From a virus, in UHGV virus genome UHGV-0138833: a stretch of DNA of 23,871 nt. The stretch is one strand, 5' to 3'. The stretch's first letter is position 1. Each line of letters opens with the position of its first letter. The notes under the pieces are model-generated. The model worked only from the letters and a program-made list of their open reading frames with translations, was not told where the DNA came from and made no database searches. Positions 5,682 through 21,278 of this stretch are shown one piece after another. Made by a program: the position numbers and the translations under genes.

Positions 5682-5870
5682 TTATTCCTCATCTTCATCT
5701 TCATCTGCTGGTGCAATAACGTCATATCCTGCCCTTTCTGCAATAAACAGGAATGTTGAAAGAGTTCCTACAAGTTCATCGTCATGAACATGGCGAATGA
5801 ATATTACTTTCCCGTTTTTGATGGTCAGCAATATTCTGGTTTGTTCGTGTTCTGCTGTTTTCTGATGCAT
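5682..5870 (-). CDS. Hypothetical small protein (62 aa) with acidic C-terminal tail
   Basis: GGGAGA RBS at 5-nt spacing; C-terminus ...ADEDEDEE. Confidence 0.45.
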   Translation of the reverse strand: MHQKTAEHEQTRILLTIKNGKVIFIRHVHDDELVGTLSTFLFIAERAGYDVIAPADEDEDEE

Positions 5871-6064
5871 TATTATCTCCCGTATGCTTTACGCAGAAAT
5901 AAGCAGGCAATATGCATGTAATTTTCACCGTATTGTGCAATAAGGCAGGCGGTCTTGTGTGATGCCATATTCTTTATAAAAGTCACAATAAAGCCTCCTG
6001 TGGATTAAGGTTGTAACAATCCCCGGCGATAAAACCGCAATAAACGTTCAGGGCATATTTGTTG

Positions 6065-6430
6065 TTATTGCGCTAATTCTTTTTCGGCAGCAGCTTTTGT
6101 ATACTCACATGCAAAACTCAGAATTTCGCTGCCGAGTGTTTTCGTTTCGTGATTACTGGACATATGTAATACCTGTGTTGCATGCAATAAATGATAAACA
6201 TTTACCGCAAATGAATCAGGCTCCAGACAAATGCCTTCGTAATTATCTTGCTGTGAGGTTGTTTCTGTCATTGCTCCTGAAGTGCATGCGAGCCTGTTTT
6301 TGACAATTCTCTTTTCTCTAATCACTATATCGGCAACATCTATTGCCTTTACAACCTCCGGGAGAAGTTCCGGGTTTGTATAATCAAAGTCATCAACATG
6401 GAGAACAGTTATGTTTTCGAACTTTTTCAT
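6065..6430 (-). CDS. Hypothetical phage protein (121 aa)
   Basis: GAGGAA RBS 3 nt upstream of ATG 6430; preceded by about 130 bp of intergenic sequence containing inverted repeats. Confidence 0.5.
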   Translation of the reverse strand: MKKFENITVLHVDDFDYTNPELLPEVVKAIDVADIVIREKRIVKNRLACTSGAMTETTSQQDNYEGICLEPDSFAVNVYHLLHATQVLHMSSNHETKTLGSEILSFACEYTKAAAEKELAQ

Positions 6431-6561
6431 GGCTTCCTCAGCTGACTTATATGTTCTGCTATATAGCGAGTCTCAGAAGTGTTTTCATATTGAGACTGTT
6501 TCCGCAATGATTGATAAAAATGTTCGCATGTACCTTGAAGGGCGAAGCGGCGATTATGTCA

Positions 6562-7062
6562 CTATTGGTATTGGTTCTTCCGCAGAAGAGCTTCGCGAGA
6601 TAAGGGGCAAACTTGTTGAGATGCGTCATGGTGTTGCTGCTCCTCACTTTTTGGTTGCTCCGGAGGAGTAACCTCACCAGTTAACAGCCACATCGGATCG
6701 CAGCCAAGAATATTTGCCAGTGGGATAAGCATACTGATAGTTGGTTCATACTCTCCGCTCTCCCACTGGATGATAATTTCTTCATCGAGATCGAGCAGCC
6801 TGGCGAGTTCGGCGGTTGTTAAGCCGCAGGCTTCGCGTTGGGTGCGAAGACGGTTGTTGATTGCAGAATTTTTGTTCTGTAAAAGCATTGCTGACGATAG
6901 CTTTCTGGATATGCTATTTGTCATATCCCATGCCAGTCCTGCGCATGACTCTATATCGCTAGAGAGCGTAGCATCAGGTGTTGCTTTTGCTATTAGTGTA
7001 ATGAGGCTGCCGAGGTTTTTCAGTTCTTCGAGACAGTCAAGAGTTGTAGCTTTATTGATCAT
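6562..7062 (-). CDS. XRE-family HTH DNA-binding protein (166 aa), first gene of the leftward operon
   Basis: Cro/C1-type HTH segment LRTQREACGLTTAELARLLDLDEEIIIQWESGEYEPTISMLIPLANILGCDPMWLLTG. GAGG RBS 11 nt upstream of ATG 7062. Confidence 0.6.
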   Translation of the reverse strand: MINKATTLDCLEELKNLGSLITLIAKATPDATLSSDIESCAGLAWDMTNSISRKLSSAMLLQNKNSAINNRLRTQREACGLTTAELARLLDLDEEIIIQWESGEYEPTISMLIPLANILGCDPMWLLTGEVTPPEQPKSEEQQHHDASQQVCPLSREALLRKNQYQ

Positions 7063-7099
7063 GAGATGATACCTCAGTTACGAACTTTGTTTTATGGTA

Positions 7100-7141
7100 A
7101 CTAAGGTATCAAGGTGTGGCAAGTGATTTTTGATACTTTGG
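7100..7141. promoter_or_regulatory. Left operator cluster (OL-like): divergent TTGATAC cores
   Basis: CCTTGATACC on the minus strand (7104-7113) and TTGATACTTTGG on the plus strand (7130-7141), between the repressor 3' end and the leftward operon start. Confidence 0.45.
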
Positions 7142-7165
7142 TTTCTTTTTGTGTTTTGTGTCTGG

Positions 7166-7822
7166 TCAGAAAATATCCCACCTGGCATCAACCACAACAC
7201 CTACTATTTCGCAATCATTGTCCATTTCTATGATTGGATATTGTGGATTAAGGGGCTTTAGAAACGCCTTTCCCATGTCAGAAATATATTTTTTGAATGT
7301 TGCTTCATTGGTCGATTTTTTTCTGGCGATGACGTAACACCCTGAAAAAACTTCTTTATCTGGGTTGACAAGGATCGACATTCCTTCAGGAAATGTTATT
7401 CCTACGGGCGAAGTCATTGAGTCTCCGTGCACTTCCAGCCAGAACCCCCTCTCACCAGCGTATTTTACAGAATGCCTCCAATTATCCTGATCATACATGT
7501 TGTAGTCATCACCAGAAGTTGCGAATAATCCTGCCTGAACCCAGTTAATTACAGGGTAAGAGTGTGCTGTGTCTCTCTGTGGGCAGCTCTTAACATTATT
7601 TTCCCAATGCTTATCTTTTTCATCTCCGTTCTGAAGCCACTGCGGTGAACACCGCAGTGCAGCTGCAACTTTAAAAAGGGTGTCACCGTTGAAACTTTTT
7701 GTAAGGCCTTGCTCGGCTTTACTGATTGCAACTCTGGTGATCCCAGCTTTTTTAGCCAACGCATCTTGTGTTAACCCAGCTTTTTGCCGTGCGTTGATGA
7801 GACGTTCACCTAAAGACTTCAT
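7166..7822 (-). CDS. CI-type prophage repressor: N-terminal HTH plus C-terminal S24 (LexA-like) autopeptidase
   Basis: Start taken at MKSLGERLINARQ (ATG 7822) with GAGAGGAGAAGAAAA RBS. HTH QKAGLTQDALAKKAGITRVAISKAEQG; Ala-Gly candidate cleavage site (VQAGLF); GDSM serine motif and downstream Lys (ARKK). Confidence 0.8.
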   Translation of the reverse strand: MKSLGERLINARQKAGLTQDALAKKAGITRVAISKAEQGLTKSFNGDTLFKVAAALRCSPQWLQNGDEKDKHWENNVKSCPQRDTAHSYPVINWVQAGLFATSGDDYNMYDQDNWRHSVKYAGERGFWLEVHGDSMTSPVGITFPEGMSILVNPDKEVFSGCYVIARKKSTNEATFKKYISDMGKAFLKPLNPQYPIIEMDNDCEIVGVVVDARWDIF

Positions 7823-7842
7823 TTTTCTTCTCCTCTCATGGC

Positions 7843-7920
7843 TGTTGATACTAAAGTAACAGAATTTCTTGATACTTTGGATTCCCGTGGTTAACATCGT
7901 TGGATAACAAAGTATCTGGT
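7843..7920. promoter_or_regulatory. Right operator cluster (OR-like): three TTGATAC-type cores
   Basis: GTTGATACTAAAG (7844-7856), CTTGATACTTTGG (7869-7881) and inverted CCAGATACTTTGT (minus strand, 7907-7919). Lies between the repressor start and the rightward genes. Confidence 0.5.
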
Positions 7921-7933
7921 GTGAGACTAAAGA

Positions 7934-8161
7934 ATGACCCTTTATGAAATATTAAAAATTCAATTTAAAACCAATGCCGCTATTGGTCGCAGGTTCCCAA
8001 AGAAAGGAAGGCCTCGTGGCAGTCAAGGTGTTGGAAAGTGGAAAACGCGAGGTGTTCCGGAGGATGTTGCCATTCTTTGTCATCTGGATCCGAGCATTCC
8101 ATATACACACCCAAGTCTAGCGAATACAGAAGATGACAAGCCCACAGGAGACCAACAATGA
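7934..8161 (+). CDS. Hypothetical small basic protein (75 aa) in the Cro position; no recognisable HTH
   Basis: First rightward ORF. Stop overlaps the next start (ATGA). Contains KKGRPRG, an AT-hook-like motif. Weak RBS, odd composition. Confidence 0.3.
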   Translation: MTLYEILKIQFKTNAAIGRRFPKKGRPRGSQGVGKWKTRGVPEDVAILCHLDPSIPYTHPSLANTEDDKPTGDQQ

Positions 8162-8865
8162 ACACCGCAATTTTTAACGGCAAAGCATCCATGACCAGCG
8201 TTGAGATCGCAGAGCTGGTGGGTAAACGTCATGACAATGTGAAACGCACTATTGAAACATTAGCCAAAGGTGGCGTTGTCCGGTCTCCTCAAATTGAGGT
8301 TTCCGAAAGAATCAATAACTTAGGTTTTAAAGTTCAATATGAGCATTACCTGTTTGAAGGAGAACAAGGTAAGCGCGACAGCATCATTGTCGTCGCACAG
8401 CTCTGTCCTGAATTCACTGCTCGCCTGGTAGATCGCTGGCGCGAACTGGAAGAACAGATCCGTAAGCCAATGAGCGAAATCGAAATGGTTGCCGCGATGG
8501 CTCTTGAAGCCGTTCGCCAACAGAAACGGATCACTCAGGTGGAAGAAAAAGTCAGCCACGTTGCTGAAACAGTCGAGCAAATTAAAAAGGGCACTATTCG
8601 TGAGGGCTATGCCGGATATCGCCAACTGAAAGCAAAAACCGGTTTGTCAGATGATAAATGCCGCAATCTGGTGAACGCCTATCAGATTCCTACAGACACC
8701 CATGAGTTCATGACGCCGGACGGATTGTTGTCACGTCGCGCAATTGTTGCTGTGGAACCGTTTATGGCTGCTTTTTATCGGGTTATGGAGGAAGCAGAAC
8801 CGCGAGGGACTCGCTGGTATCACCCGAAAATGGGGTTATTTCAGGTTATTGGTTGGCAGCGGTGA
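8158..8865 (+). CDS. Rha-family phage regulatory protein / antirepressor-like (235 aa)
   Basis: Strong AGGAGA RBS. N-terminal SVEIAELVGKRHDNVKRTIETL pattern typical of Rha-type regulators (recollection of family signature). Confidence 0.55.
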   Translation: MNTAIFNGKASMTSVEIAELVGKRHDNVKRTIETLAKGGVVRSPQIEVSERINNLGFKVQYEHYLFEGEQGKRDSIIVVAQLCPEFTARLVDRWRELEEQIRKPMSEIEMVAAMALEAVRQQKRITQVEEKVSHVAETVEQIKKGTIREGYAGYRQLKAKTGLSDDKCRNLVNAYQIPTDTHEFMTPDGLLSRRAIVAVEPFMAAFYRVMEEAEPRGTRWYHPKMGLFQVIGWQR

Positions 8866-8889
8866 AAAAAAGCCGGGAGTAACCCGGCT
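8864..8889 (-). terminator. Hairpin with a U-tract only in the minus orientation (antisense-blocking terminator candidate)
   Basis: AAAAAAA then AGCCGGG-AGTAA-CCCGGCT. On the minus strand this reads hairpin followed by TTTTTTT. No leftward gene ends here. Confidence 0.4.
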
Positions 8890-9087
8890 CACTCAACATC
8901 AATAACGGGGAGCTGTTTCGCATAAAACGGCTCCGAAACATCCAAGAACAGTTCTAAAGATATCAGCAGCTATATGATCATTTCAAGACCAAATATTGAT
9001 TCTGCAATTTCGGGACGTTACACTGTCTCTGCACCTTATAAAGCGGGTGCCGGGGGTCGCAGCCCGGAATTGTCAACGGCGATATAT

Positions 9088-9108
9088 GACGCGCCAGCGT
9101 CTTTTTTA
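9088..9108 (+). terminator. Short intrinsic terminator candidate in the leader of the second Rha gene (tR1-like position)
   Basis: Stem GACGC / GCGTC, loop GCCA, followed by TTTTTTA. Confidence 0.35.
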
Positions 9109-9273
9109 TCGTCCGCGCTCACGCACGCCAGAATTATGGTGGGCTGGGCAGGGGAGCCGAAAGGCTCGCCGGTCTCCGTTGACGCCGGTACTGCGAACCC
9201 TGTTCAGTCTGCCACCAGTGAGTTTCGCAGCTCCGGTGGTGGAAGTTTTCCACAGTCAACGGAGGCTGCCATC

Positions 9274-9825
9274 ATGGCTACGATCCCAACCCTCACTCAA
9301 CCTGAAATTGCCATCGTTGATGGTCAGGCTGTTACTTCATCCCTGGCTGTTGCCAACTTCTTCTCCAAGCGTCATGACGATGTACTGAAAAAGATCCGCA
9401 CGCTTGAATGCTCCGCATCATTCACTGCCCGCAATTTTTCGGTGAGTGATTACACCGATTGCACAGGCCGCAAACTACCTTGCTATCAAATCACCCGTGA
9501 TGGCTTCGCGTTCCTTGCTATGGGCTTTACTGGCAAACGTGCAGCCCGGTTCAAAGAGGCATACATCAACGCCTTTAACCTGATGGAGAAGAGTTTATCA
9601 GGTGCCGATGCGTCTGATATGTCAGCTGTCGCACGAAACGCCAGAGGCGTATACCTGCATTTGCGTGAAATCCATCAAATCTGGACAAGCCAGCTTTATC
9701 CAATGCTTAAGGCCGTTGAATCTCCGCTGGCTAGCAAACTGTACGACCGTGTTGGTGATGCTGTTTTTGGCGCTGCACTTGTTGGTTCCAGGCTGAATGG
9801 TTCTGACAAGGAGGTTCGCCCATGA
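9274..9825 (+). CDS. Rha-family phage regulatory protein (about 183 aa)
   Basis: Start taken at MATIPTL (ATG 9274) with GGAGG RBS at 9261-9265. Segment FSKRHDDVLKKIRTL...ARNFSVSDY...YQITRDGFAFLAMGFTGKRAARFKEAYINAFNLME matches the Rha pattern. Confidence 0.65.
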   Translation: MATIPTLTQPEIAIVDGQAVTSSLAVANFFSKRHDDVLKKIRTLECSASFTARNFSVSDYTDCTGRKLPCYQITRDGFAFLAMGFTGKRAARFKEAYINAFNLMEKSLSGADASDMSAVARNARGVYLHLREIHQIWTSQLYPMLKAVESPLASKLYDRVGDAVFGAALVGSRLNGSDKEVRP

Positions 9826-10016
9826 TTAGTTACGAAATCATCATCTCCACTACGGAATACAGAAACGATGTATCAGTTCGCACGGATGTATCTGTCTGGC
9901 ACCGTCGCTATAAATCCAGAAAAACAGCGGAACTGAAAGCGGCAGAGATGTGTGAAACCATCTCAATGAAAGGTAGCCCGGTTAAATACGTAACTACGGT
10001 GGAGGTGCGTCCATGA
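9822..10016 (+). CDS. Hypothetical small phage protein (64 aa)
   Basis: Start overlaps the upstream stop (ATGA), indicating translational coupling. Confidence 0.5.
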   Translation: MISYEIIISTTEYRNDVSVRTDVSVWHRRYKSRKTAELKAAEMCETISMKGSPVKYVTTVEVRP

Positions 10017-10237
10017 TCCGCCACATCGTTAATTCCCTGTATCACCGATACAACCGTTGCCCCCGTGTGGGGCAGTGGTTCGCCACCAGCAACGGTCACG
10101 TTCTGCGGGTTTGCCTAGTCAACGCTGAAAGCCAGAAAGTCGTGTGCGAACTACAGGGGCGTAGCTACACCATCAGTTACCCTCTGGCGGTATTTCTGTC
10201 TGGAAAAATGTTTAAGCGTCTGGGAGGTGTGGCGTGA
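10013..10237 (+). CDS. Hypothetical small phage protein (74 aa)
   Basis: Translationally coupled to neighbours by ATGA/GTGA overlaps. Confidence 0.5.
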   Translation: MIRHIVNSLYHRYNRCPRVGQWFATSNGHVLRVCLVNAESQKVVCELQGRSYTISYPLAVFLSGKMFKRLGGVA

Positions 10238-10533
10238 ACTGTTTTCAGTTTGTGTGCGGATGTGCTTTCGATAACCCGATTCAGCGCCTAATTATGTTGC
10301 GTGTTTTGATGTCGGGTTCTTCAGACGGTGAAGGCGAGAGAGTTATTGATCATCAGGTGCTTGCTGATTTCTGCTGTTGTTCTAAGCAAGCGATATTCAG
10401 GGAAACCCTGGCACTGGAAAGAGCTGGTTATCTTCATATCCGAAAAATTGCAACGCTTACTATTGATGCAAAAGCCAGACTACAACCTGCGCGTGGCTAC
10501 ACAATTCTCATGCCGCGGAAGGAGGTTGTATGA
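10234..10533 (+). CDS. Hypothetical small phage protein (99 aa), possible winged helix
   Basis: Coupled ORF; segment AIFRETLALERAGYLHI is HTH-like. Confidence 0.45.
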   Translation: MNCFQFVCGCAFDNPIQRLIMLRVLMSGSSDGEGERVIDHQVLADFCCCSKQAIFRETLALERAGYLHIRKIATLTIDAKARLQPARGYTILMPRKEVV

Positions 10534-11516
10534 GCCGTTACGCCCCCACACCGGAAGTTATGGCTATTGGTCAAATTAATATTTCCGGCAATGTTACACC
10601 TGCGAACTGGTGGAAATATATTCGACTACCCAGTGGGCGTCCGGATGCGACGGCTATCGCTCTGCTTTCAGAGATCGTTTACTGGTACCGCCCGACAGAG
10701 ATCAGGGATGAGCACACCGGAGCGTTGCTGGGATATCGCAAGCGTTTTCAGGGCGACAAACTGCAAAGAAGCTACCAGGCGTTTGCTGAGCAGTTTGGTT
10801 TCGGGAAAAGGGAAACCGCAGATGCGCTGAAGCGTCTGCGCGATGCAGGGTTTATTACTCTGGATTTACGCACGGTGGAAATGCTCGATGGGGTGAAATG
10901 CAGCAATATTTTGTTTGTCGGGATCAACCCACAGGCAATTGCGGCCATCACCACACCTTCTTCTGTTTCGCCAGAAAGTAACAGCAATAATGCAATCAGC
11001 GATACAGCTATTACGTTAAAACGGAACACCCCCCGACGTCATAACGGAACAGGGGATACGCCGAATGTTGATACAAATACAGAGATTACTACAGAGATTA
11101 CAACGGAGACTAAAAACACTATTGATGCATCCGCTGACGCGTCTGCGCGTTCTGCCCGACAGGAATATTCACCGGAATTTGAACAGGCCTGGCAGGAATA
11201 TCCCAAACGTGCTGGTGGCAATTCCAAGTCAGCGGCCTTCAAAGCCTGGAAAGCCCGTATCAGGGAGGGAATAAAACCGGAGACCATGCTTGATGGCGTG
11301 AAGCGGTATGCCGCCTGGGTACGTGCTACAGGAAATACCGGCACACAGTTCGTGAAGCAGGCTGCGACGTTCTTTGGACCCGATCGTCACTTCGAAGATT
11401 ACTGGCAACAGCCAGCCGCTCACGGAGGTGGGCGACAGCGACAGGTCGATGTCCTGGCTGGCCTGGGAGCCATGTCTGACAAATTCGGTAAATCCAGTAA
11501 CAAATTGACATTCTGA
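10530..11516 (+). CDS. Putative replication initiation protein (O-like position, 328 aa)
   Basis: AGGAGG RBS. Sits directly upstream of the DnaC-like and DnaB-like genes. Central low-complexity linker TEITTEITTETK encoded by 12-bp tandem repeats. Confidence 0.5.
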   Translation: MSRYAPTPEVMAIGQINISGNVTPANWWKYIRLPSGRPDATAIALLSEIVYWYRPTEIRDEHTGALLGYRKRFQGDKLQRSYQAFAEQFGFGKRETADALKRLRDAGFITLDLRTVEMLDGVKCSNILFVGINPQAIAAITTPSSVSPESNSNNAISDTAITLKRNTPRRHNGTGDTPNVDTNTEITTEITTETKNTIDASADASARSARQEYSPEFEQAWQEYPKRAGGNSKSAAFKAWKARIREGIKPETMLDGVKRYAAWVRATGNTGTQFVKQAATFFGPDRHFEDYWQQPAAHGGGRQRQVDVLAGLGAMSDKFGKSSNKLTF

Positions 11517-11526
11517 GGTGACAGCG

Positions 11527-12426
11527 ATGATGACGATTGACCAACGTGAGAAACAAACAAGACTACAGGCGCGAATGGATGAGTTACGGGCAGAAATGGA
11601 TGAGTTACGGGCAGAGATTGCATTTGCTCAGAAGGGCGAAAAGCCATGGCCTTATCGTTCCTGCCTGATGCGTGAAGGTCGCGGATATTGCGAAAAACAC
11701 GGTAAATATCGTACGCATATACTGGTGTGGATCGATCGTAATGGCGAGGACAGAGAAAAAATTTCATGCTGCCCTGACTGCTTGATCGCTGAGGCCAGTG
11801 ATTTGACCATGGAACTGTCGTCCCTCAAGGCGGAAGAACTGACTGATAACGCCGGAATTGCTCTGCGTTTTCGGGACTGCGAGTTTGATAATTATCTGGA
11901 GGTTAATCCTGACGCAGCCAGAAATCTTGCGGCCTGTCGCCGCTATGCGGAGAACTGGCCAGATATGCTGGAGAACGGTACCAGTCTTGTTATGACCGGC
12001 AGTTGCGGTACCGGGAAAAATCATCTGGCGGTATCAATGGCAAAACACATCATCCGTAACTATCTGGCCAGTGTGGAGATCACCGACGTGATGCGCCTTA
12101 CCCGGGCTGTGAAAAACTGCTGGCGGAATGACAGTGAAAAAACAGCGGATGACGTCATTGAGCATTATGCGTCACTGGATTTGCTGATTGTCGACGAAGT
12201 CGGCGTTCAGTTTGGCAGTGCGGCTGAAATGGCCATTTTGCAGGAAATTATCAATGCCCGGTATGAGGGTATTTTGCCAACTATCTTGATCAGCAATCTT
12301 TCACCGGAAGAATTGTGGGCGTTCATCAGTCCCCGGATTGCCGACAGGATCACCGATGGCGGGCGCAACTGGTTGTCGTTTAACTGGCCCAGCTACCGTT
12401 CTCGTATCGGAGGTGTTGCCGCATGA
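11527..12426 (+). CDS. DnaC-like helicase loader / IstB-type AAA+ ATPase (about 299 aa)
   Basis: Walker A GSCGTGKNHLA and Walker B LLIVDEVG. Start ATG 11527 after GAGGTGA. Contains a perfect 21-bp tandem duplication (RAEMDELRAEMDEL). Confidence 0.75.
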   Translation: MMTIDQREKQTRLQARMDELRAEMDELRAEIAFAQKGEKPWPYRSCLMREGRGYCEKHGKYRTHILVWIDRNGEDREKISCCPDCLIAEASDLTMELSSLKAEELTDNAGIALRFRDCEFDNYLEVNPDAARNLAACRRYAENWPDMLENGTSLVMTGSCGTGKNHLAVSMAKHIIRNYLASVEITDVMRLTRAVKNCWRNDSEKTADDVIEHYASLDLLIVDEVGVQFGSAAEMAILQEIINARYEGILPTILISNLSPEELWAFISPRIADRITDGGRNWLSFNWPSYRSRIGGVAA

Positions 12427-13823
12427 CCAGCCAGAACACCCCGGCATGGCGTAACGATGACCTGGAAGGCGCTGTCATCGGTGCGTTTTTTCTGCGTGGG
12501 GCCGATCCGGAAGTGATGGATATTCTGGCCACACTTCCGGCGGATGTATTTTTTGTGCGTCAGTACCGGGATATTTACGCGGGGATTTGCAGACAGGCTC
12601 GCATATCCGGCGTCATTGACCCCGTACTGCTGTGCAATGAGATGCCGGAACTTGCCCCGGTGATTACCGACACCGGACGCAAAACCTGGGTGAAGTCTTC
12701 ACTGGAGCACTATGTCGCAGCGTTGCGGCGCAATGCCGCACTGCGCGATGCAGAAAAAACACTGACTGAAGCATTACAGAATTTACGTGATGCGTATACC
12801 TGTGAAGCAGCCGAGGATGCCCTGAAGGATGTGCAGAACATGATGGCCTCACTGTCGACCGGAAAGGGCGTCATTCAGCCGGTTCACATTGATGATGTCC
12901 TTCCGGAAGTGGTCGACCGTGTTGAATGCCGCAATCAGGGACTGGAGAAATCCAGGGCGCTGATGACCGGTATTGATGAACTGGACGCAAAAACGGGCGG
13001 TATGGAGCCCGGAGACCTGGTATTCATTGCCGCCCGTCCTTCGATGGGGAAAACCGAACTTGCGCTGGACATCATCGACAAGGTGACTGAGCAGGGGCAT
13101 GGCGTGCTTCTGTTCACCATGGAGATGGCGAACATCCAGATTGGTGAACGTATGGTGTCTGCTGCCGGTGGAATGCCGGTATCCCGTCTTAAGTCTGTTG
13201 CCCGTTTTGAAGATGAAGACTGGGCGCGTTTCTCGCAGGGCGTGGGACGAATGACGGGGCGTAATATCTGGATGGTGGACCAGGCAAACCTGACCATTGA
13301 TGAGATATGTGCAACCACGAAGCACCACCGGATGAAACACCCGGAAACGGCGCTGGTGGTGGTCGATTACCTCGGCCTGATTAAAACCCGCAGCACGGGG
13401 CGTCACGACCTTGCGGTGGGGGAAATCTCAAAGGGACTTAAAAGCCTGGCAAAATCCGGCGGTTTTCCGCTGATTGCTCTGAGCCAGCTCTCCCGCGGCG
13501 TGGAATCCAGACCCAATAAACGCCCAATGAACTCGGACCTGAAAAACTCCGGGGAAATCGAGGCGGATGCCGACATCATTCTGATGCTTTACAGGGATGA
13601 GGTATACAACCCGGAAACTCAGGCCAGAGGCATAGCAGAAATCAACATCACGAAACAGCGTAATGGCACGCTCGGGACCATTTACCGGCGTTTTCATAAC
13701 GGACATTTTCTGCCTGTGGACCAGGAGAGTGCCCGGGTTCTTTCCACACCCATGACGCCGGGCAATCCGCGCAGATACAGCAATAACCGCATGTCGGGCA
13801 GTAAAACGGAGCGTTTATTTTGA
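12423..13823 (+). CDS. DnaB-family replicative helicase (466 aa)
   Basis: Walker A ARPSMGKTELALDI, Walker B LVVVDYLGLI, ALSQLSR motif. Start overlaps the loader stop (ATGA). Confidence 0.8.
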   Translation: MTSQNTPAWRNDDLEGAVIGAFFLRGADPEVMDILATLPADVFFVRQYRDIYAGICRQARISGVIDPVLLCNEMPELAPVITDTGRKTWVKSSLEHYVAALRRNAALRDAEKTLTEALQNLRDAYTCEAAEDALKDVQNMMASLSTGKGVIQPVHIDDVLPEVVDRVECRNQGLEKSRALMTGIDELDAKTGGMEPGDLVFIAARPSMGKTELALDIIDKVTEQGHGVLLFTMEMANIQIGERMVSAAGGMPVSRLKSVARFEDEDWARFSQGVGRMTGRNIWMVDQANLTIDEICATTKHHRMKHPETALVVVDYLGLIKTRSTGRHDLAVGEISKGLKSLAKSGGFPLIALSQLSRGVESRPNKRPMNSDLKNSGEIEADADIILMLYRDEVYNPETQARGIAEINITKQRNGTLGTIYRRFHNGHFLPVDQESARVLSTPMTPGNPRRYSNNRMSGSKTERLF

Positions 13824-14077
13824 ACAACAGAACAATCACTGTTTCACCGGAACAACTTCGTCGGCAGGCGCAGGAGATGCTTCGTTGTGCTGAACAGATG
13901 AAAAAAACGAGCGTGAAAAAAGATACGCTCCGCAAGCAGCTTACTCCGGCGCTTCGTGATCTGCTGCAGGCAAAACACCGCACACAAAAGGCGGTGGATG
14001 AGCTGGTGGATTGCGTGGCGGAACTGGAAGGACAGGTAAGCCAGTTTGAAACGCTGGTGAAGGAGTTTACTGCGTGA
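13820..14077 (+). CDS. Hypothetical small coiled-coil protein (85 aa, probable TTG start)
   Basis: ORF coupled to the helicase stop; charged helical sequence. Confidence 0.4.
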   Translation: MNNRTITVSPEQLRRQAQEMLRCAEQMKKTSVKKDTLRKQLTPALRDLLQAKHRTQKAVDELVDCVAELEGQVSQFETLVKEFTA

Positions 14078-14123
14078 TGGCTGAATTTTTTTCTCCTGTG
14101 TTCATGCAATACCGTTCGCTGAG

Positions 14124-15119
14124 GTGACCGTGAGAGCACTGCTGACCCCTGAAATTGCCCCGCGTATGGGGATTGTATTGTTCAGGCCCGGTTCAGAGCT
14201 GATGCCCCTGTTTATGCAGGGGCGTGTCCTGCTGGAGCCTGAGCCGGAACGTTATTCATCTTTCGCCAGCGGTGCCGTTCCGGCAGCATCACAACCGCTG
14301 GCGGATGATCCTGCCGTTCGGGCCGTGTTCCGCCATGAGGCGGTGATCCGTCGTGCTGGTGGCGTGGAATGCCTTGAGAGCTGGTTACTTCGTGAAAAAG
14401 GCTGTCAGTGGCCTCATTCCGACTGGCACAGCGAGAACATGACCACAATGCGGCACGCGCCAGGCGCAATCCGTCTGTGCTGGCACTGTGACAATCTTCT
14501 CCGTGACCAGTTCACGGAACGGCTGGAAGCAATGGCAACGGATAACTGTGCCCGCTGGGTGTTGTCTGTTGTGCGCCGTGATCTTGGTTTTGATGACAGT
14601 CACGTTGTGACAATGCCGGAACTGTGCTGGTGGCTGATTCGTAATGACCTGGCGGATGCCTTACCGGAAAGTGCAGCCCGTAAGGCACTGAGATTACCGA
14701 AGCCTGTTGTGCCGTCTGTCACCCGGGAAAGTGACCTTGTGCCTTCGGTTACTGCCACCAGCATCATCCAGGATAAGGCGAAAAAGGTGCTGGCGCTGAA
14801 AGTGGATCCGGAGTCGCCGGAGTCTTTTATGTTACGCCCAAAACGTCGTCGCTGGGTTAATGAAAAGTACACGCGCTGGGTTAAGACGCAGCCGTGTGCA
14901 TGTTGTGGTAAGCCAGCCGACGATCCCCATCACCTGATTGGTCATGGTCAGGGCGGAATGGGGACAAAATCTCACGATATTTTCACGCTACCGCTGTGTC
15001 GGGAGCATCACAACGAGCTTCATGCGGATCCTCTGGCGTTCGAAGAAAAGCATGGTTCTCAGGTTGATTTAATTTTTCGTTTTCTTGATCACGCCTTTGC
15101 AACTGGCGTGCTTGGGTAA
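14124..15119 (+). CDS. DUF968-type protein with C-terminal HNH-like Cys/His cluster (about 331 aa)
   Basis: C-terminal CACCGKPADDPHHLIGHGQGG...LCREHHNELHA. GTG start at 14124 or 14130. Family name is from recollection of E. coli prophage proteins, not searched. Confidence 0.55.
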   Translation: MTVRALLTPEIAPRMGIVLFRPGSELMPLFMQGRVLLEPEPERYSSFASGAVPAASQPLADDPAVRAVFRHEAVIRRAGGVECLESWLLREKGCQWPHSDWHSENMTTMRHAPGAIRLCWHCDNLLRDQFTERLEAMATDNCARWVLSVVRRDLGFDDSHVVTMPELCWWLIRNDLADALPESAARKALRLPKPVVPSVTRESDLVPSVTATSIIQDKAKKVLALKVDPESPESFMLRPKRRRWVNEKYTRWVKTQPCACCGKPADDPHHLIGHGQGGMGTKSHDIFTLPLCREHHNELHADPLAFEEKHGSQVDLIFRFLDHAFATGVLG

Positions 15120-15131
15120 AAGAGGTGACTG

Positions 15132-15491
15132 ATGCTCATAGATTTGGTTTTACCTTACCCGCCGACGGTGAACACTTACTGGCGACGCCGTGGCAGCACA
15201 TATTTTGTATCAAAAGCCGGGGAGCGTTATCGCCGGGCAGTGGCGCTTATTGTTCGCCAGCAGCGGCTGAAATTAAGCCTGTCCGGAAGGCTGGCGATAA
15301 AGGTGATTGCAGAGCCACCGGATAAGCGCCGTCGTGACCTGGACAATATTCTGAAAGCACCACTGGATGCACTGACACATGCGGGGTTGCTTATCGACGA
15401 CGAGCAGTTTGATGAAATCAATATTGTGCGCGGACTGCCTGTTCCTGGTGGTCGGTTGGGGATAAAAATCACAGAGCTGGAGTGCGCATGA
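15132..15491 (+). CDS. rusA: RusA-family Holliday junction resolvase (119 aa)
   Basis: Close resemblance to E. coli RusA as recalled: LPYPPTVNTYWRRRG..., DKRRRDLDNILKAPLDALTHAGLLIDDEQ, GGRLGIKITELE. Confidence 0.8.
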   Translation: MLIDLVLPYPPTVNTYWRRRGSTYFVSKAGERYRRAVALIVRQQRLKLSLSGRLAIKVIAEPPDKRRRDLDNILKAPLDALTHAGLLIDDEQFDEINIVRGLPVPGGRLGIKITELECA

Positions 15492-16177
15492 ATAACCAGT
15501 ATTTACAGTTTGTTCGTGAGCAACTCATTATCGCCACCGCCGATTTGAGTGGGGCAACAAAAGGTCAGCTTGAAGCCTGGCAGGAGAATGCCATGTTTGA
15601 TACAGGGCGTTACAGACGTAAAAAAATCCGGTACCGCGATAAGGTCACTGGAAAAATGGTAACGCTGGATAATCCACCGATCCCGGGAAAGCAATCGCTG
15701 GCGAAAGGTTCATCAATTGCCCTAGTCAGTCCGGTTGAGTTTTCGACATCATCATGGCGACGCGCCGTTCTGTCTCTTGAAGAGCATCAGAAGGCGTGGG
15801 TACTGTGGGTATACAGTGAAAATCCGAGTTGGGATTATCAGGTGGTCATTGCGAAATGGGCGTGGGATAAGTTTCAGGTGCATTTTGGCACCAGAAAAAT
15901 TACAGGGAAAACGCTTGAGCGTCTGAAGAAATTAATCTGGCTGGCGGCGCAGGATGTCAGGGGGAGGATTACTGGGTGTGACGTCTACCAGCGACAGGAA
16001 CTTGCCAGACTGTGTGGAGTTAAGTCAGACAACTGGAGCCACAATTATGCGCACTACTGGCGTGATATGTGCGACATTTTTAAGAACCTCGACAACGAAT
16101 CTTTGATTTATACCATGAAAACAAGATCGCAACAAAAAGCGACCTTTTCGCGGCGGGTTATTGCAAAAGTCAATTAA
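15488..16177 (+). CDS. Putative late-gene antiterminator (Q-like, about 229 aa)
   Basis: Assignment is positional: directly after rusA with an ATGA overlap and followed within about 70 nt by a terminator-like hairpin (lambda Q-PR'-tR' geometry). No sequence motif was confirmed. Confidence 0.4.
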   Translation: MNNQYLQFVREQLIIATADLSGATKGQLEAWQENAMFDTGRYRRKKIRYRDKVTGKMVTLDNPPIPGKQSLAKGSSIALVSPVEFSTSSWRRAVLSLEEHQKAWVLWVYSENPSWDYQVVIAKWAWDKFQVHFGTRKITGKTLERLKKLIWLAAQDVRGRITGCDVYQRQELARLCGVKSDNWSHNYAHYWRDMCDIFKNLDNESLIYTMKTRSQQKATFSRRVIAKVN

Positions 16178-16241
16178 ATCGCGTACATTTCGTGTAAATC
16201 TGATATTTTGCTGATTTTGTACACGATGGCAAACTAAACAA

Positions 16242-16272
16242 AGCCTGCTGCTGAGCGGGCTATCTTTTGTCG
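16242..16272 (+). terminator. tR'-like intrinsic terminator candidate downstream of the Q-like gene
   Basis: Stem AGCCTGC / GCGGGCT (7 bp including one G-U pair), loop TGCTGA, followed by ATCTTTTGT. Confidence 0.4.
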
Positions 16273-16449
16273 TAAGTTGAGCGAAAGACCATCGATTTTA
16301 CCTTGCTAAAACTATTCTGCTATTGCCGAGTTACCCTTTAGGTAATACACTCATCTTATAAAAGAAAGTGGTTGTTAGCCACATAGGTTAGGATGTGCGC
16401 ATACTTTGTTTGTGTGCTTTTTGTGTTTTATCTGTTAACGGAGGGGAGC

Positions 16450-16677
16450 ATGCCGAAATATCTAACACTTGCCGCTCGCGCGATCCTCTCACCTGAGAAG
16501 ATCATCAAAAAAATTGCAGATATAGCTTCCATGTGTGATGGAAAAGAAGCTAAGCATGAAAGTGACAAGTTTTTCATTGATAGTAATGGTTCGATGGTTT
16601 TGAATCGCAACAACGCTGATGTGCAAAAGGCTTTCGCAGCCAATATTAAGGGATTGAGTACTAAGAAGAAGGGTTAG
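16450..16677 (+). CDS. Hypothetical small soluble protein (75 aa), first gene of an AT-rich two-gene cassette
   Basis: Strong GGAGGGGAG RBS before ATG 16450 (track start 16393 lacks an RBS). AT-rich relative to flanking phage genes (visual estimate). Confidence 0.55.
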   Translation: MPKYLTLAARAILSPEKIIKKIADIASMCDGKEAKHESDKFFIDSNGSMVLNRNNADVQKAFAANIKGLSTKKKG

Positions 16678-16683
16678 TCTTCT

Positions 16684-17481
16684 ATGTGGGCTGCGCTGAT
16701 TGTTATTGTTTTAGTTTGTGGTTATCACTATACCAACTGCCATTTGCCGTCACGATACCGTCAAAGCAAAGCGATCGGTTGGAATGCATACTTTGATGTT
16801 GCACTGAAAGGTGGTGAGTTTCTCATAAGTGGTATTCTTATCGCTGCCTTATTGGTTGTTGTTCTGTACGCTGGAATGTCACTTTGGAACATTCCAGCGT
16901 ACTTGTTTGGTTGGTACGCTCCCTTTACTTTCGCCCATGACTTTCTCAAAATGCAAGTGTTTGGGTTGAGCATGTTCCCTGCTATGTCGATAGCTTTCAC
17001 TATTATTGTAAGTATCGGGAAGGCATCAGAGGCAACCAAAAACCATAAAGACCCACAAAAGCGCAAGGCTATTTTTGAAGAAATTGCGGCTCATAGTGCC
17101 GTGGAAAATATCCTTCTTGAATCAGTTGAGCGTGGATTGTTATTGTTGGTTACACTGAAGTCTCGCAAGGTCTATGTGGGGATGATTGATGAGGCACGTT
17201 TCAATCAGTTAGATACTAACACATTGGTGCTAATCCCTTTTATGTCCGGGTACAGAGATAAAGATACTCTGACTTTTTGTGTTGAGCATAATTATGTGGA
17301 CTACTACCTTAGTCAGGGTATCACATTAACTTCTGAGCCATTGTCAGTTTATCAGTTTAGGCATGTGTTGCCCTTCGATCAGATCGAATCTTTTTCGCTG
17401 TTTAATGTTGAAACATTCGAGACTTTCAAGGCAGGTATTGAAGGGAAGAAGGCCACTGAAGTACAGAATCAAACAAGTTAA
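16684..17481 (+). CDS. Hypothetical membrane protein (265 aa): about three N-terminal TM helices plus a ~150-aa soluble C-terminal domain
   Basis: Hydrophobic segments AALIVIVLVCGY, FLISGILIAALLVVVLYAGMSLW and VFGLSMFPAMSIAFTIIVSIG. No recognisable catalytic motif. Followed by a strong terminator. Confidence 0.6.
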   Translation: MWAALIVIVLVCGYHYTNCHLPSRYRQSKAIGWNAYFDVALKGGEFLISGILIAALLVVVLYAGMSLWNIPAYLFGWYAPFTFAHDFLKMQVFGLSMFPAMSIAFTIIVSIGKASEATKNHKDPQKRKAIFEEIAAHSAVENILLESVERGLLLLVTLKSRKVYVGMIDEARFNQLDTNTLVLIPFMSGYRDKDTLTFCVEHNYVDYYLSQGITLTSEPLSVYQFRHVLPFDQIESFSLFNVETFETFKAGIEGKKATEVQNQTS

Positions 17482-17500
17482 GGTTGTTACCTCATTAATT

Positions 17501-17527
17501 AAACCCGCCATTGAGCGGGTTTTTTGA
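17501..17527 (+). terminator. Strong rho-independent terminator closing the two-gene cassette
   Basis: AAACCCGC-CATTGA-GCGGGTTT followed by TTTTTG. Confidence 0.75.
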
Positions 17528-17643
17528 TGCCCGAAGTGCGGTACATTAAACGCGCTGGTAGTTATTAATATCGGTCTTTCAGCTTGCTGGCTTTTTCGAC
17601 AAGAGTTATTGGTATGTCACGTTAACCAGAAAAGGGAAAAGGC

Positions 17644-17841
17644 ATGCTAAAACAGCAGGATATGACCGAAACTGCCAGAGTGGTGTTTAATGAATTAAGC
17701 GTCACCGAACCGGCGACCGTCGGGGAAATTGCGCATAATACTTACCTTTCACGCGAACGTTGCCAGTTAATACTGACCCAGCTTGTTATGGCGGGTCTGG
17801 CAGATTATCAGTTCGGTTGTTACAGACGCCTTCCTCAGTGA
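17644..17841 (+). CDS. Small putative HTH DNA-binding protein (65 aa) upstream of the methyltransferase
   Basis: Segment ATVGEIAHNTYLSRERCQLILTQLVMAGLA resembles a winged-helix/HTH. Confidence 0.45.
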   Translation: MLKQQDMTETARVVFNELSVTEPATVGEIAHNTYLSRERCQLILTQLVMAGLADYQFGCYRRLPQ

Positions 17842-17939
17842 AGGCTTTTTTATTTGTGGTAATGGGCGGCTGGTGGGTGTTAGCGGCACCTGCCAGCCAT
17901 CTGCTCATGCGTTGGGTTCACAAGCAAACCTCAGGCCCA

Positions 17940-17958
17940 CTGCTTTGCGCAAAAGCAG
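17940..17958. promoter_or_regulatory. 19-bp palindrome just upstream of the methyltransferase start
   Basis: CTGCTTT-GCGCA-AAAGCAG, about 30 bp before ATG 17991. Confidence 0.35.
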
Positions 17959-17990
17959 AATGAGCCTATCAGAGACAGGCTTAATGATCC

Positions 17991-19040
17991 ATGCTTAATA
18001 CTGTAAAAATATCCAGTTGTGAGTTAATCAACGCCGACTGCCTGGAATTTATCCGGTCGTTACCCGAAAATTCTGTTGACCTGATAGTTACGGACCCGCC
18101 GTACTTTAAAGTGAAGCCTGAGGGCTGGGATAACCAGTGGAAGGGCGACGATGATTACCTGAAGTGGCTGGACCAGTGTCTGGCGCAGTTCTGGCGGGTG
18201 CTGAAACCTGCCGGAAGTCTTTACCTGTTCTGTGGTCATCGCCTGGCATCTGATATCGAAATCATGATGCGTGAACGCTTCAGTGTGCTGAACCATATTA
18301 TCTGGGCGAAGCCGTCCGGACGCTGGAACGGATGCAACAAGGAAAGCCTGCGGGCGTATTTCCCCGCCACAGAGCGCATTCTGTTCGCGGAACATTATCA
18401 GGGGCCGTATCGTCCGAAAGATGCCGGGTATGAGGCGAAGGGCAGGGCACTGAAACAGCATGTGATGGCCCCGCTGATTGCTTACTTTCGTGATGCGCGC
18501 GCTGCCCTGGGGATAACGGCAAAACAGATTGCAGATGCCACAGGAAAGAAAAACATGGTGCCGCACTGGTTCAGTGCCAGTCAGTGGCAGCTACCGAACG
18601 AAAGCGATTATCTGAAATTACAGTCGCTGTTTGCCCGGGTGGCAGAAGAGAAACATCAGCGCGGGGAACTGGAAAAGCCACACCACCAGCTGGTCAGCAC
18701 ATACAGTGAGCTGAACCGGCAGTATATGGAACTGCTGAGTGAATATAAAAATTTGCGGCGGTATTTCGGTGTGACGGTGCAGGTGCCGTACACCGATGTG
18801 TGGACGTATAAACCGGTGCAGTACTATCCCGGGAAACATCCGTGCGAAAAACCGGCAGAAATGCTGCAGCAGATAATCAGCGCAAGTAGTCGTCCTGGTG
18901 ATCTGGTTGCGGATTTTTTCATGGGGTCGGGTTCAACGGTAAAAGCGGCGATGGCACTGGGGCGTCGTGCGATTGGTGTTGAGCTGGAGACCGGACGTTT
19001 TGAGCAGACAGTCAGGGAAGTTCAGGATTTAATCGTTTGA
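17991..19040 (+). CDS. DNA amino-methyltransferase (probable N6-adenine, beta-class motif order; 349 aa)
   Basis: Catalytic motif IV DPPY (VTDPPYF) near the N-terminus and AdoMet motif I FFMGSGST near the C-terminus. No adjacent restriction endonuclease, so apparently orphan. Confidence 0.8.
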   Translation: MLNTVKISSCELINADCLEFIRSLPENSVDLIVTDPPYFKVKPEGWDNQWKGDDDYLKWLDQCLAQFWRVLKPAGSLYLFCGHRLASDIEIMMRERFSVLNHIIWAKPSGRWNGCNKESLRAYFPATERILFAEHYQGPYRPKDAGYEAKGRALKQHVMAPLIAYFRDARAALGITAKQIADATGKKNMVPHWFSASQWQLPNESDYLKLQSLFARVAEEKHQRGELEKPHHQLVSTYSELNRQYMELLSEYKNLRRYFGVTVQVPYTDVWTYKPVQYYPGKHPCEKPAEMLQQIISASSRPGDLVADFFMGSGSTVKAAMALGRRAIGVELETGRFEQTVREVQDLIV

Positions 19041-19089
19041 AACGGATGAGATTGCAGTATTAATTCCGTAACGTTATTATTCTGCGCGC

Positions 19090-19165
19090 GGCCCTTTAGC
19101 TCAGTGGTGAGAGCGAGCGACTCATAATCGCCAGGTCGCTGGTTCAAATCCAGCAAGGGCCACCA
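19090..19165 (+). tRNA. tRNA with anticodon CAU (Ile2-like, ileX/ileZ type; Met not excluded)
   Basis: Manual cloverleaf: acceptor GGCCCTT/AAGGGCC, D-arm GCTC..GAGC, anticodon loop CTCATAA, T-arm GCTGG-TTCAAAT-CCAGC, encoded CCA. Resembles E. coli ileX as recalled. Confidence 0.8.
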
Positions 19166-19172
19166 TCACATA

Positions 19173-19249
19173 CCGCCATTAGCTCATCAGGAAAGAGCGC
19201 CAGCCTTCGAAGCTGGCTGCGCGGGGTTCAAGTCCCCGATGGCGGTCCA
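19173..19249 (+). tRNA. tRNA-Arg (anticodon UCG)
   Basis: Manual cloverleaf: acceptor CCGCCAT/ATGGCGG, anticodon stem CCAGC/GCTGG with loop CTTCGAA, T-arm CGGGG-TTCAAGT-CCCCG, encoded CCA. Confidence 0.75.
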
Positions 19250-19262
19250 TTATCTGCATCAT

Positions 19263-19339
19263 GCGTTGTTAGCTCAGCCGGACAGAGCAATTGCCTTCTA
19301 AGCAATCGGTCACTGGTTCGAATCCAGTACAGCGCGCCA
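19263..19339 (+). tRNA. tRNA-Arg (anticodon UCU)
   Basis: Manual cloverleaf: acceptor GCGTTGT/ACAGCGC (one G-U pair), anticodon stem ATTGC/GCAAT with loop CTTCTAA, T-arm ACTGG-TTCGAAT-CCAGT, G73, encoded CCA. Confidence 0.8.
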
Positions 19340-19446
19340 TATTCATTCTTCCAGATTCCTTTCGGCAGAGCCTTATACTGAAATATACCTGGCTCAGGAT
19401 ATTGTTGAAAATATTATATGTTTGTCAAAAATAAAAGTTCTGTTAA

Positions 19447-19803
19447 GTGTTGATTGAGTGTTTGTTATACGGTCTAATGGTTTTTTCAGCATTAAATATT
19501 TATCATTCATATGGTGTGGGTAGAGTGAATATTGATGAGGCGTCGGGGTGTTTCATCCTTAGGCAGCGTATTGATATAGTCAATGCAGAACGAGCAAAGG
19601 CCTTCAGCCGTTTGACAGTTTTGTTCTGTACTCCTGATCGTCTTTCGGGAAGAGACGTTATTATTCTGAATAGTGATGCTATACAGAGGGTTTGCGATGA
19701 GTTCATGGTGGCTAATTCAGAATTATTTGCTCTTGTTCAGGAGTACAACAGAATAGCCAGGACCTGTGGTATGGATGAACTTCGGATTACTCATCTGGGG
19801 TAG
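19447..19803 (+). CDS. Hypothetical protein (about 109-118 aa) in the AT-rich island after the tRNAs
   Basis: ORF with uncertain start (TTG 19447 or ATG 19474). AT-rich; no recognisable motif. Confidence 0.4.
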   Translation: MLIECLLYGLMVFSALNIYHSYGVGRVNIDEASGCFILRQRIDIVNAERAKAFSRLTVLFCTPDRLSGRDVIILNSDAIQRVCDEFMVANSELFALVQEYNRIARTCGMDELRITHLG

Positions 19804-20195
19804 ATACATATCTGGATTATCACCGGTTACGGTAAAAAGTGATTGCTTACTGTTTTTGTGAATGGCATTGCAGCAGCCGGATAATGTCAGTGCTGGCTGA
19901 CGGTGTGCTGGTGGCGGGTGTGGTGGTTGCTGCTTTCCCGTTGCTGAAAAAGAAAACGCCAGACTGTTAGCCGGGTATCAGTTAGCGGGAGAAATTTTTA
20001 AATACTTCACAATTCAGGCGGTTGACTGTTGTCTGGTTTGCGGGGAGTTTGTTAAAAGAAACTGGCATGGTGAATCCCCCTGTGCGGAGGGGCAATCAGC
20101 GAGTAGGTATATGGGATAATCGCGGATTCAGGTGCTGGTACTGAATTCACCGGGAGGCACCCGGCACCATGCAATGGCACATAGCGCCACTCTCC

Positions 20196-20231
20196 AGCCC
20201 CTCTCCGGAGGGGCTGTTTATATTGATTTTG
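20196..20231 (+). terminator. Rho-independent terminator ending a GC-rich structured segment
   Basis: AGCCCCTC-TCCG-GAGGGGCT (8-bp stem) followed by GTTTATATTGATTTTG. A sibling hairpin CCCCT-GTGCGG-AGGGG lies at 20077-20092. Confidence 0.65.
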
Positions 20232-20586: not shown

Positions 20587-20846
20587 TTAGTTTCCTTGTT
20601 TATGCCTTGCTGGTGATGTTCTGAAAAGTATAAATGATATTTTTGATTGTAAACCATAGAGCAGAATTATTTTTCTGATGTTGTTTATTGTTTATTTAAA
20701 TGCAGGGTGGTTTATATCTCGTCTTGTAGTTTATCCATGCATATCTGCTTGATGATGAGGTTTTTAATTAAGGTATGGTTTTGTGTTTTTTCTGTATTAC
20801 ATGTCAGGTATTTTAAAGAATCATTTTTCAGATGGTGGAAAGAACC

Positions 20847-21035
20847 ATGGCATTTAAACACTATGATGTTGTCAGGGCGGCGTCGCCGTCAGATCTTGCG
20901 GAAAAGCTGACACATAAACTGAAAGAGGGCTGGCAGCCGTTTGGTAGTCCGGTGGCCATAACCCCTTATACCCTGATGCAGGCGATTGCAGCAGAAGGTG
21001 ATGTGGTGGTCAGTGGTGCAACTGAGCCGGAGTGA
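20847..21035 (+). CDS. Hypothetical small protein (about 63 aa) upstream of the holin
   Basis: Start taken at MAFKHYD (ATG 20847). Family not determinable from sequence alone. Confidence 0.5.
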   Translation: MAFKHYDVVRAASPSDLAEKLTHKLKEGWQPFGSPVAITPYTLMQAIAAEGDVVVSGATEPE

Positions 21036-21278
21036 TACTACGTCATCGTACTGGCCCGGCATTCCAGGCCATAAAAGACGGTCTGGCAGTGGGACTAAAT
21101 GCACTGACGCTGACGGATATTACCAAAAATGCAACGTATGGCGTTGAGATGGAAAGTCTGGTGCTGGAGATAAATGCACCGGCATCATCATAAAAAGTGA
21201 GCCAGTCAAATGGAAGGTATCGTTAAACTCACCGGTAGTGTCAGTGGGTCGTCTGAGACGCCTGCATGAGTTATCAGA

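Follow-up and report, generated by a model that had tools for sequence, protein, structure and literature searches.

Introduction

Prophage cargo modules that combine a membrane protein with a small partner are of a familiar kind, and the RexA/RexB module of phage lambda, a prophage-encoded abortive-infection system thought to protect lysogens via the membrane, offers a point of comparison for the one analyzed here. This is a cassette of two genes, encoding a 75-amino-acid (aa) soluble protein and a 265-aa membrane protein, that lies after the Q antiterminator gene in UHGV virus genome UHGV-0138833 (23,871 nucleotides (nt); this whole stretch of DNA is called the window below). How close are the two modules? 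Both are two-gene prophage modules consisting of a multi-pass inner-membrane protein and a cytoplasmic partner, but in Rex it is the smaller protein, RexB, that resides in the membrane, with four transmembrane helices and without an Sm-like domain, and rex is located in the immunity region rather than after Q. No sequence or fold relation between Rex and our pair was found, though no search was aimed at one.

A second comparison is one of location. Between gpA and the portal gene of P2-like phages lies an anti-phage hotspot, occupied in P2 by old and tin (Rousset et al. 2022, PMC9122126), which Wiles et al. 2013 (PMC3573123) call 'moron position 1'. Relatives of the pair occupy exactly that locus, but the proteins are unrelated to Old, to Tin or to the systems validated in PMC9122126. 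The copy in the window, moreover, is in a lambdoid Q slot.

The remaining comparisons concern the fold of the larger protein, whose C-terminal domain is predicted to resemble Sm proteins. Sm-fold proteins such as Hfq and LSm typically bind RNA, and we know of no classical Sm protein that is fused to a membrane anchor, as the domain here is. In MscS, which forms a heptameric ring, an Sm-like beta domain in the cytoplasm comes after three membrane helices; the large protein is predicted to share this order, a likeness of layout only.

Results

A two-gene cassette inserted after Q

The window is a lambda-like Escherichia coli prophage, 99.9% identical over 4243-19352 to the prophage of strain AR_0372 adjoining cmoA/yecN. 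The Q antiterminator gene (15482-16177; PF06323, E 1.5e-83) is the 5' neighbor of the cassette, a block encoding a 65-aa protein, a methyltransferase and three tRNAs lies on its 3' side, and the cassette has the orientation of the late operon, placed between Q and the holin/lysozyme genes. Its limits are defined by an empty-site allele in E. coli B1172 (locus L164), which has the Q gene and the same downstream block in common with the window, at 88-91% identity across the Q and methyltransferase flanks: the alignment runs through 16237 and resumes at 17520, with a 26-nt terminator in place of the cassette. Other cargo is found in the same post-Q slot of E. coli strain 10, where an unrelated gene encodes a 237-aa hypothetical protein (L165, 1226-1939), and of E. 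coli VR50, which has a Ser/Thr kinase and a PP2C phosphatase there (L166, 1143-2647). Because empty and differently loaded alleles occur, the post-Q site is a cargo slot with fast turnover, and this comparison of flanks bears out the variable cargo slot proposed in an earlier note, written from the DNA letters without database searches.

The base composition of the interval is equally distinct, with a guanine-plus-cytosine (GC) content of 0.39-0.43 over 16100-17600 against 0.48-0.58 in both flanks. The cassette thus has two hallmarks of lambdoid morons, insertion at a site with cassette-free alleles and deviating base composition. The drop in GC, the two hairpins and the exact insertion at 16238-17519 agree with the compositionally distinct, terminator-bounded two-gene unit after Q that the note had described, and its description of the elements is correct, since all of them are present; only the start of the small open reading frame (ORF), which does encode 75 aa behind a strong ribosome-binding site as claimed, shifts by one base, to an ATG at 16450 rather than 16451. 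The arrangement is best explained as a two-gene moron, self-contained and mobile by horizontal transfer, that has taken the place of the tR' terminator region downstream of Q in a lambda-like prophage. Its features, all on the plus strand, are as follows.

16238-17519, plus strand: whole inserted cassette, about 1.28 kilobases, from the alignment with the empty site of L164
16242-16270 (hairpin 16242-16261), plus strand: upstream terminator-like hairpin at the place of tR' behind Q; its U tract is weak (terminator scan; -14.2 kcal/mol, z -2.8)
16323-16351, plus strand: candidate cassette promoter, with -35 TTGCCG at 16323-16328, a 17-nt spacer and -10 TACACT at 16346-16351
16397-16417, plus strand: weak hairpin with a T run after it, in what is presumably the 5' leader (terminator scan; fold -7.8 kcal/mol, z -1.7, not significant)
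16440-16448, plus strand: Shine-Dalgarno sequence GGAGGGGAG of the small gene (read from the sequence)
16450-16677, plus strand: small partner protein, 75 aa, soluble and basic (ORF; WP_001127354.1)
16684-17481, plus strand: membrane protein, 265 aa (ORF; WP_021553036.1)
17501-17525 (hairpin 17501-17522, then U6), plus strand: strong intrinsic terminator closing the cassette (-15.9 kcal/mol, z -4.5)

About 190 nt of noncoding DNA separate the upstream hairpin from the ribosome-binding site of the small gene. Within this interval, GTAATACACTC lies 107-111 nt upstream of the ATG, with TTGnnG 17 nt further upstream, in L001 (a 100%-identical copy) and in its counterparts in Pantoea (L005) and Serratia (L006). 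The candidate promoter matches the consensus at 8 of 12 positions, under the consensus threshold of the promoter scan, and since related cassettes lack an overall alignment upstream, nothing more extended than this short promoter-like motif is definable as a regulatory element. The motif suggests that the cassette has a promoter of its own and could be expressed in the lysogen. The role of the hairpin at 16397-16417 is uncertain, and it may have arisen by chance. An Rfam scan of the cassette gave sub-threshold matches only and no known RNA; one of them, to isrJ (21.7 bits against a threshold of 37), covers 16193-16263 and is probably not meaningful. That stretch runs from just behind Q up to the first terminator and is where one would expect a short pR'-tR' transcript. 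The sequence of the closing terminator (17501-17525), AAACCCGCCATTGAGCGGGTTTTT, also occurs in L096, upstream of a homologous pair.

Carriers of the cassette number 14 among 5,426 complete E. coli genomes, and the location is chromosomal in every case. A much larger number of these genomes, 2,483, match the query, most among those listed over the 17644-19339 block only; in most of the matching genomes listed besides B1172, strain 10 and VR50, homology to the downstream block begins at window 17499-17515, that is, at the terminator. This block, with its 65-aa winged-helix-like protein (phrog_331), N6/N4 DNA methyltransferase and three tRNAs, is very widespread and usually joined to other Q types. 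Its first tRNA is identified as Met (CAT) by ARAGORN and annotated as tRNA-Ile by NCBI.

The two genes form a conserved pair

Of the 150 loci with a full-length large gene, 149 have a small ORF immediately 5' of it, a homolog or positional equivalent of the small gene; an ORF was counted if it had at least 35 codons and ended within a few bases of the large-gene start (36-108 aa, mostly 55-95). Loci with such a partner include those of Acidobacteria, Balneolaceae, Pseudomonas and Shewanella, and tblastn detects the partner even where the large proteins are 35-38% identical. The gap from the stop of the small ORF to the large ORF is 6 nt in the window, spacing in most relatives is -16 to +15 nt, and a Shine-Dalgarno-like motif precedes the ATG in most of the 77 homologous small genes recovered. 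A search for a conserved third gene around the pair found none.

Both ORFs are called by the NCBI annotation in L001, and all 14 E. coli genomes with the cassette have two 'hypothetical protein' features under the match. The ratio of nonsynonymous to synonymous substitution rates (dN/dS) is at most 0.16 where dS is computable, which is for the small ORF only, dS being saturated in all large-ORF and most small-ORF pairs; dN spans 0.14-0.52 overall and stays at 0.14-0.24 for the large ORF despite the saturated dS. With a near-universal upstream partner, no third gene and conserved coding, the pair forms an obligate, self-contained operon.

The large protein belongs to a big unnamed family

By profile similarity, the large protein is a member of a big unnamed family in Proteobacteria, Acidobacteria and Bacteroidota. 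A HMMER search of 1.84 billion representative proteins, clustered at 50% identity, retrieved 2,752 clusters at E<=1e-3 and 1,711 at E<=1e-10, nearly all members being 230-300 aa long. Homologs occur throughout Enterobacterales, and the profile reaches Vibrionaceae, Shewanella, Pseudomonas, Psychrobacter, Neisseriales, Legionella, Acidobacteria and Balneolaceae. The cassette is no isolated case, for the family comprises thousands of clusters and extends outside phages.

The full length of the large protein matches phrog_3630 of PHROGs (E 1.6e-59), whose function is unknown, and a PHROGs scan of both proteins returned unknown-function families only. Neither window protein has a match in Pfam or NCBIfam, and a search of PADLOC was likewise empty for both, in line with the statement of the earlier note that neither could be assigned to a nameable family. 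The sole Pfam family to give any signal is DUF6338 (PF19865), to which 4 of 33 diverse relatives align from the N-terminal membrane part into the beginning of the barrel described below; these matches reach 16-21 bits against a gathering threshold of 26.5, the window protein itself has none, and the function of DUF6338 is unknown. A profile search against PDB sequences gave nothing meaningful for the large protein, and literature searches on the accessions, phrog_3630, DUF6338 and Sm-like or LSm defense found nothing relevant. In the resources searched, then, the protein family, its membrane-anchored Sm-like architecture and its obligate mini-partner are not described.

Hydropathy analysis of the large protein shows two strong hydrophobic segments, at about 39-72 and 90-112, and a shorter hydrophobic N-terminal helix at 2-19. 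The expectation of about three N-terminal transmembrane helices is therefore reasonable on hydropathy and on the model, though the first helix is short, and the architecture foreseen from the sequence, a small soluble protein followed by a membrane protein, holds as well, as the small protein lacks any hydrophobic segment. In alignments of the family, the motifs LKSRKVYxG (158-166) and SGYRDKD (188-194) are invariant, and the predicted first cytoplasmic loop is conserved at G32, W33, Y36 and G43.

A predicted Sm-like domain on a membrane anchor

The AlphaFold2 (AF2) model of the large protein, with a predicted local distance difference test (pLDDT) score of 87.8, places helices at 2-29, 33-75 and 97-122, linking helices up to 150, a beta-barrel at 153-240 and a final helix. 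The predicted Sm-like region spans about 139-240 and includes an N-terminal helix and a bent five-stranded barrel. In a Foldseek search against the PDB, the top 50 matches were all Sm/LSm proteins, or spliceosome and snRNP entries and an LSm-fusion design that contain them, with probabilities mostly of 0.96-1.0, target-normalized TM-scores up to 0.70 and E values of about 5e-3. Against a viral structure set, most matches were weak and to uncharacterized proteins; the few with names included a 'methylamine utilization protein' and a 'Sm-like domain-containing protein'. These comparisons predict an Sm/LSm-like fold for the C-terminal domain, in place of the domain without recognizable motif that had been reported from the letters.

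At the level of sequence the resemblance fades. An hhalign comparison puts LLLVTLKSRKVYVGMI (residues 151-168) in register with the Sm1 motif of AF-Sm1, with a probability of 0.4% and an E value of 0.16, which is not significant; inspection of the large protein reveals no Sm2 'RG' motif, and Pfam LSM does not match. The domain further differs from Sm/LSm/Hfq proteins in an insertion of about 25 residues and in family-specific invariant loops (KSRK, SGYRDKD).

A minimal MscS-like channel was considered as a family assignment and rejected. The hhalign probability against a verified E. coli MscS was 0.1%, Pfam MS_channel did not match, no MscS entry was among the top 50 Foldseek matches in the PDB, and the C-terminal alpha/beta vestibule domain of MscS is absent from the large protein, in which a single helix follows the barrel.

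The small protein is basic (14 Lys and Arg against 8 Asp and Glu), with a Kyte-Doolittle maximum of 0.75. Its AF2 model consists of a helix (2-29), a beta-hairpin (41-51) and a second helix (56-74), with a pLDDT of about 83 in the core and 68 overall. A Pfam scan produced noise only, Foldseek found no PDB fold match, and a profile search of a set of 5.8 billion proteins added one further distant match only. The upstream small ORFs share a core, approximately D-x-x-G-x-x-x-[LV]-N and then a helix, and one glycine in them is nearly invariant; the small protein diverges faster than the large one (37% versus 62% identity in L002).

Genomic homes of the pair

The pair lies exactly between gpA and the portal gene of P2-like prophages in 37 of the 161 loci fetched, and in 11 of 79 after dereplication at 85% identity. 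These hotspot copies include that of E. coli CFT073 prophage phi-b0847 (WP_001292590 and WP_000529102), which lies at 918325-919311 of NC_004431 and at L162 7257-8408 adjoins a TIGR02391/Hypoth_Ymh protein. The same CFT073 pair is entered in Table S5A of Rousset et al. as 'hypothetical + hypothetical', next to Hypoth_Ymh (PMC9122126); that table also has Hypoth_Ymh in hotspots that lack the pair, so each is cargo in its own right. Both types of pair are rare and patchy, the CFT073 type occurring in 16 of the 5,426 E. coli genomes and the window type in the 14 given above. The pair thus recurs in two unrelated prophage cargo slots, post-Q in lambdoid phages and gpA-portal in P2-like phages.

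Other recurrent upstream neighbors are Q-like antiterminators (three PHROG families, seven family matches), integrases, DinI and baseplate genes. Further copies stand beside integrases or resolvases and toxin-antitoxin (TA) genes, and on plasmids (L021, L038). Two chromosomal copies had neighbors of a conflict type, namely a CHAT/NB-ARC/TPR protein in an Acidobacteriaceae locus (L052, 3921-7478) and a PLD-SNF2 helicase in Nitrincola (L035, 8801-12070). In the phage collection searched, homologs were found only in Salmonella phages SEN4 and SEN5 (Peduoviridae, P2-like) and Klebsiella phage ST15-OXA48phi14.1, and megablast against the same collection gave no match.

Other observations in the window

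Some 640 nt of AT-rich DNA (19353-19994; GC 0.37-0.39) immediately behind the tRNA cluster, with a 118-aa ORF (19447-19803), are absent from L001, a prophage otherwise 99.9% identical. This is the position where Stx phages carry stx, and the segment may be another small cargo insertion. Also downstream of the tRNA cluster, 20036-20225 strongly matches the small RNA STnc100 in Rfam (132 bits). A SASA/NanS-p-type esterase gene of L001 (21652-23505) is mostly deleted in the window, where only its ends align, at 20846-21051. Above-threshold Rfam matches to isrK (9031-9107) and to C4 antisense RNA (9132-9219) lie beside or overlap a Rha/ant-like ORF (8974-9825), and the 9031-9219 region looks like a P1/P7-type antisense-controlled antirepressor module.

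Discussion

What does the cassette do for its carriers? From its position and architecture we infer, with a confidence that stops just short of even, that it is a membrane-based phage-exclusion or abortive-infection module expressed by the lysogen. The earlier note had called the region after Q a lysogen-benefit slot, and the recurrence of relatives of the pair in the P2 gpA-portal hotspot adds weight to that claim. In the anti-phage systems known so far, transmembrane proteins are believed to serve as effectors of cell suicide (Rousset et al. 2022, PMC9122126). Under this reading, the large protein would be an inner-membrane protein whose N terminus faces outward and whose Sm-like domain is cytoplasmic, as the distribution of basic residues and the positive-inside rule predict. 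It may form a ring, as other Sm-fold proteins do, which would gather 18-21 membrane helices, and the small basic protein, with its predicted beta-hairpin and helix, might act as a regulator or sensor by binding to the cytoplasmic domain. A ligand or this partner would most likely be bound by the barrel's invariant loops of basic and aromatic residues (K159-K162 and S188-D194). Transcription in the lysogen would start from the cassette's own promoter. A superinfecting phage would then meet one of two responses, a block of entry at the membrane or an opening and depolarization of the membrane, as in abortive infection, and the lysogen population and its resident prophage would be protected.

Several points weigh against such a role. 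Ring formation, topology, partner binding and the promoter are all things that we infer, and the model of the small protein is of moderate confidence only. The cassette points along the late operon, so Q-modified polymerase would strongly express it during lytic growth of the prophage, which is awkward for a potent membrane toxin. Many copies of the pair are chromosomal and lie among housekeeping genes such as those for a glycosyltransferase, BacA and FtsK, including ordinary genes of Acidobacteria. No database or paper that we searched links the family to defense: in PADLOC-DB v2.0.0 (2023), the two window proteins had no match at E<=1, nor did any of 33 diverse relatives at E<=0.01, and the accessions of the CFT073 pair occur in no other supplementary file of Rousset et al., the table of tested systems included (PMC9122126). 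The P2 hotspots also hold cargo other than defense, for example partition systems and toxins (PMC9122126), which makes position in such a slot a good but not decisive predictor.

One broader form of the exclusion reading is that the pair represents a new, widespread two-component anti-phage class, in which a membrane-anchored Sm-like ring is gated by a small cytoplasmic partner and is possibly triggered by nucleic acids or nucleotides at the invariant basic loops. With about 2,750 clusters in several phyla, such a class could have escaped notice until now, there being no Pfam or defense-database model for either protein. We put this forward tentatively and consider it rather doubtful.

Two other roles for a functional pair deserve weighing, and each seems unlikely to us, to about the same degree. 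The pair might be an addiction module of the TA kind, in which a membrane toxin is restrained by the small upstream protein and stabilizes its carrier elements with no part in phage exclusion. The order of the genes, small before large with tight or overlapping spacing, would fit, as would the faster divergence of the small protein in L002 and the presence of copies on prophages, plasmids (L021, L038) and integrase-flanked islands, sometimes beside MqsA-like and TumE TA genes; however, the small protein has no DNA-binding or other recognized antitoxin fold, and neither protein falls into a Pfam TA family or matches NCBIfam. This explanation overlaps with phage exclusion, because TA and abortive-infection roles are not mutually exclusive. 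Alternatively, a membrane-tethered Sm-like protein and its partner might act in lysogenic conversion or host physiology, altering the envelope or RNA physiology in ways that affect stress tolerance, colonization or virulence. The gene stx, carried after Q, is a virulence moron in such a slot, and binding of RNA, typical of Sm-fold proteins, would suit this role. Slots of this type also hold virulence and fitness morons, among them neaT and cdt in P2-like phages (PMC3573123; PMC9122126), and many copies of the pair are in ordinary chromosomal neighborhoods of Acidobacteria and other free-living bacteria. Yet patchiness, mobility and rapid turnover suit conflict systems better than physiology genes, inspection shows no Sm2 motif for RNA binding, and the homology to Sm proteins at the level of sequence is not significant.

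A part in the phage's own lytic cycle, with a late-expressed membrane protein that tunes lysis timing, membrane energetics or release, is less likely still. Orientation along the late operon and a position between Q and the holin/lysozyme genes are what it would predict, and a membrane protein with a small partner loosely recalls holin/antiholin logic. But the cassette is dispensable, because flank-related prophages at 88-91% identity (L164) do without it; in P2-like phages the pair sits in the gpA-portal slot, far from the lysis genes; many copies are outside phages; and the cassette is enclosed by terminators on both sides and probably has its own promoter. Lastly, all annotations of the two ORFs read 'hypothetical', as they would if these were chance or decaying remnants without function. 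That idea is effectively refuted by the comparative data: the proteins are conserved across phyla with invariant motifs and strong ribosome-binding sites, dN/dS of the small ORF is well below 1 where computable, the large ORF has a dN of 0.14-0.24 with saturated dS, and the large protein has a confident fold prediction.

The cassette is, in sum, a solid candidate for a phage-exclusion or abortive-infection module, well enough defined to be tested directly and of wide phylogenetic reach. If a role in defense or exclusion holds true, the pair would add a new effector design to bacterial immunity, a membrane-tethered Sm-like ring with a mini-partner, and would assign a role to thousands of 'hypothetical' gene pairs carried by prophages of E. 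coli (CFT073 included), Salmonella, Klebsiella, Serratia and Photorhabdus and by many environmental bacteria. The post-Q tR' site behaves as a swap-in, swap-out slot for cargo, comparable to the P2 hotspot, and because the same module moves between the two, either slot could be mined for further systems. Even if its function proves to be a different one, a conserved membrane-anchored protein of the Sm fold would be an unusual use of that fold.

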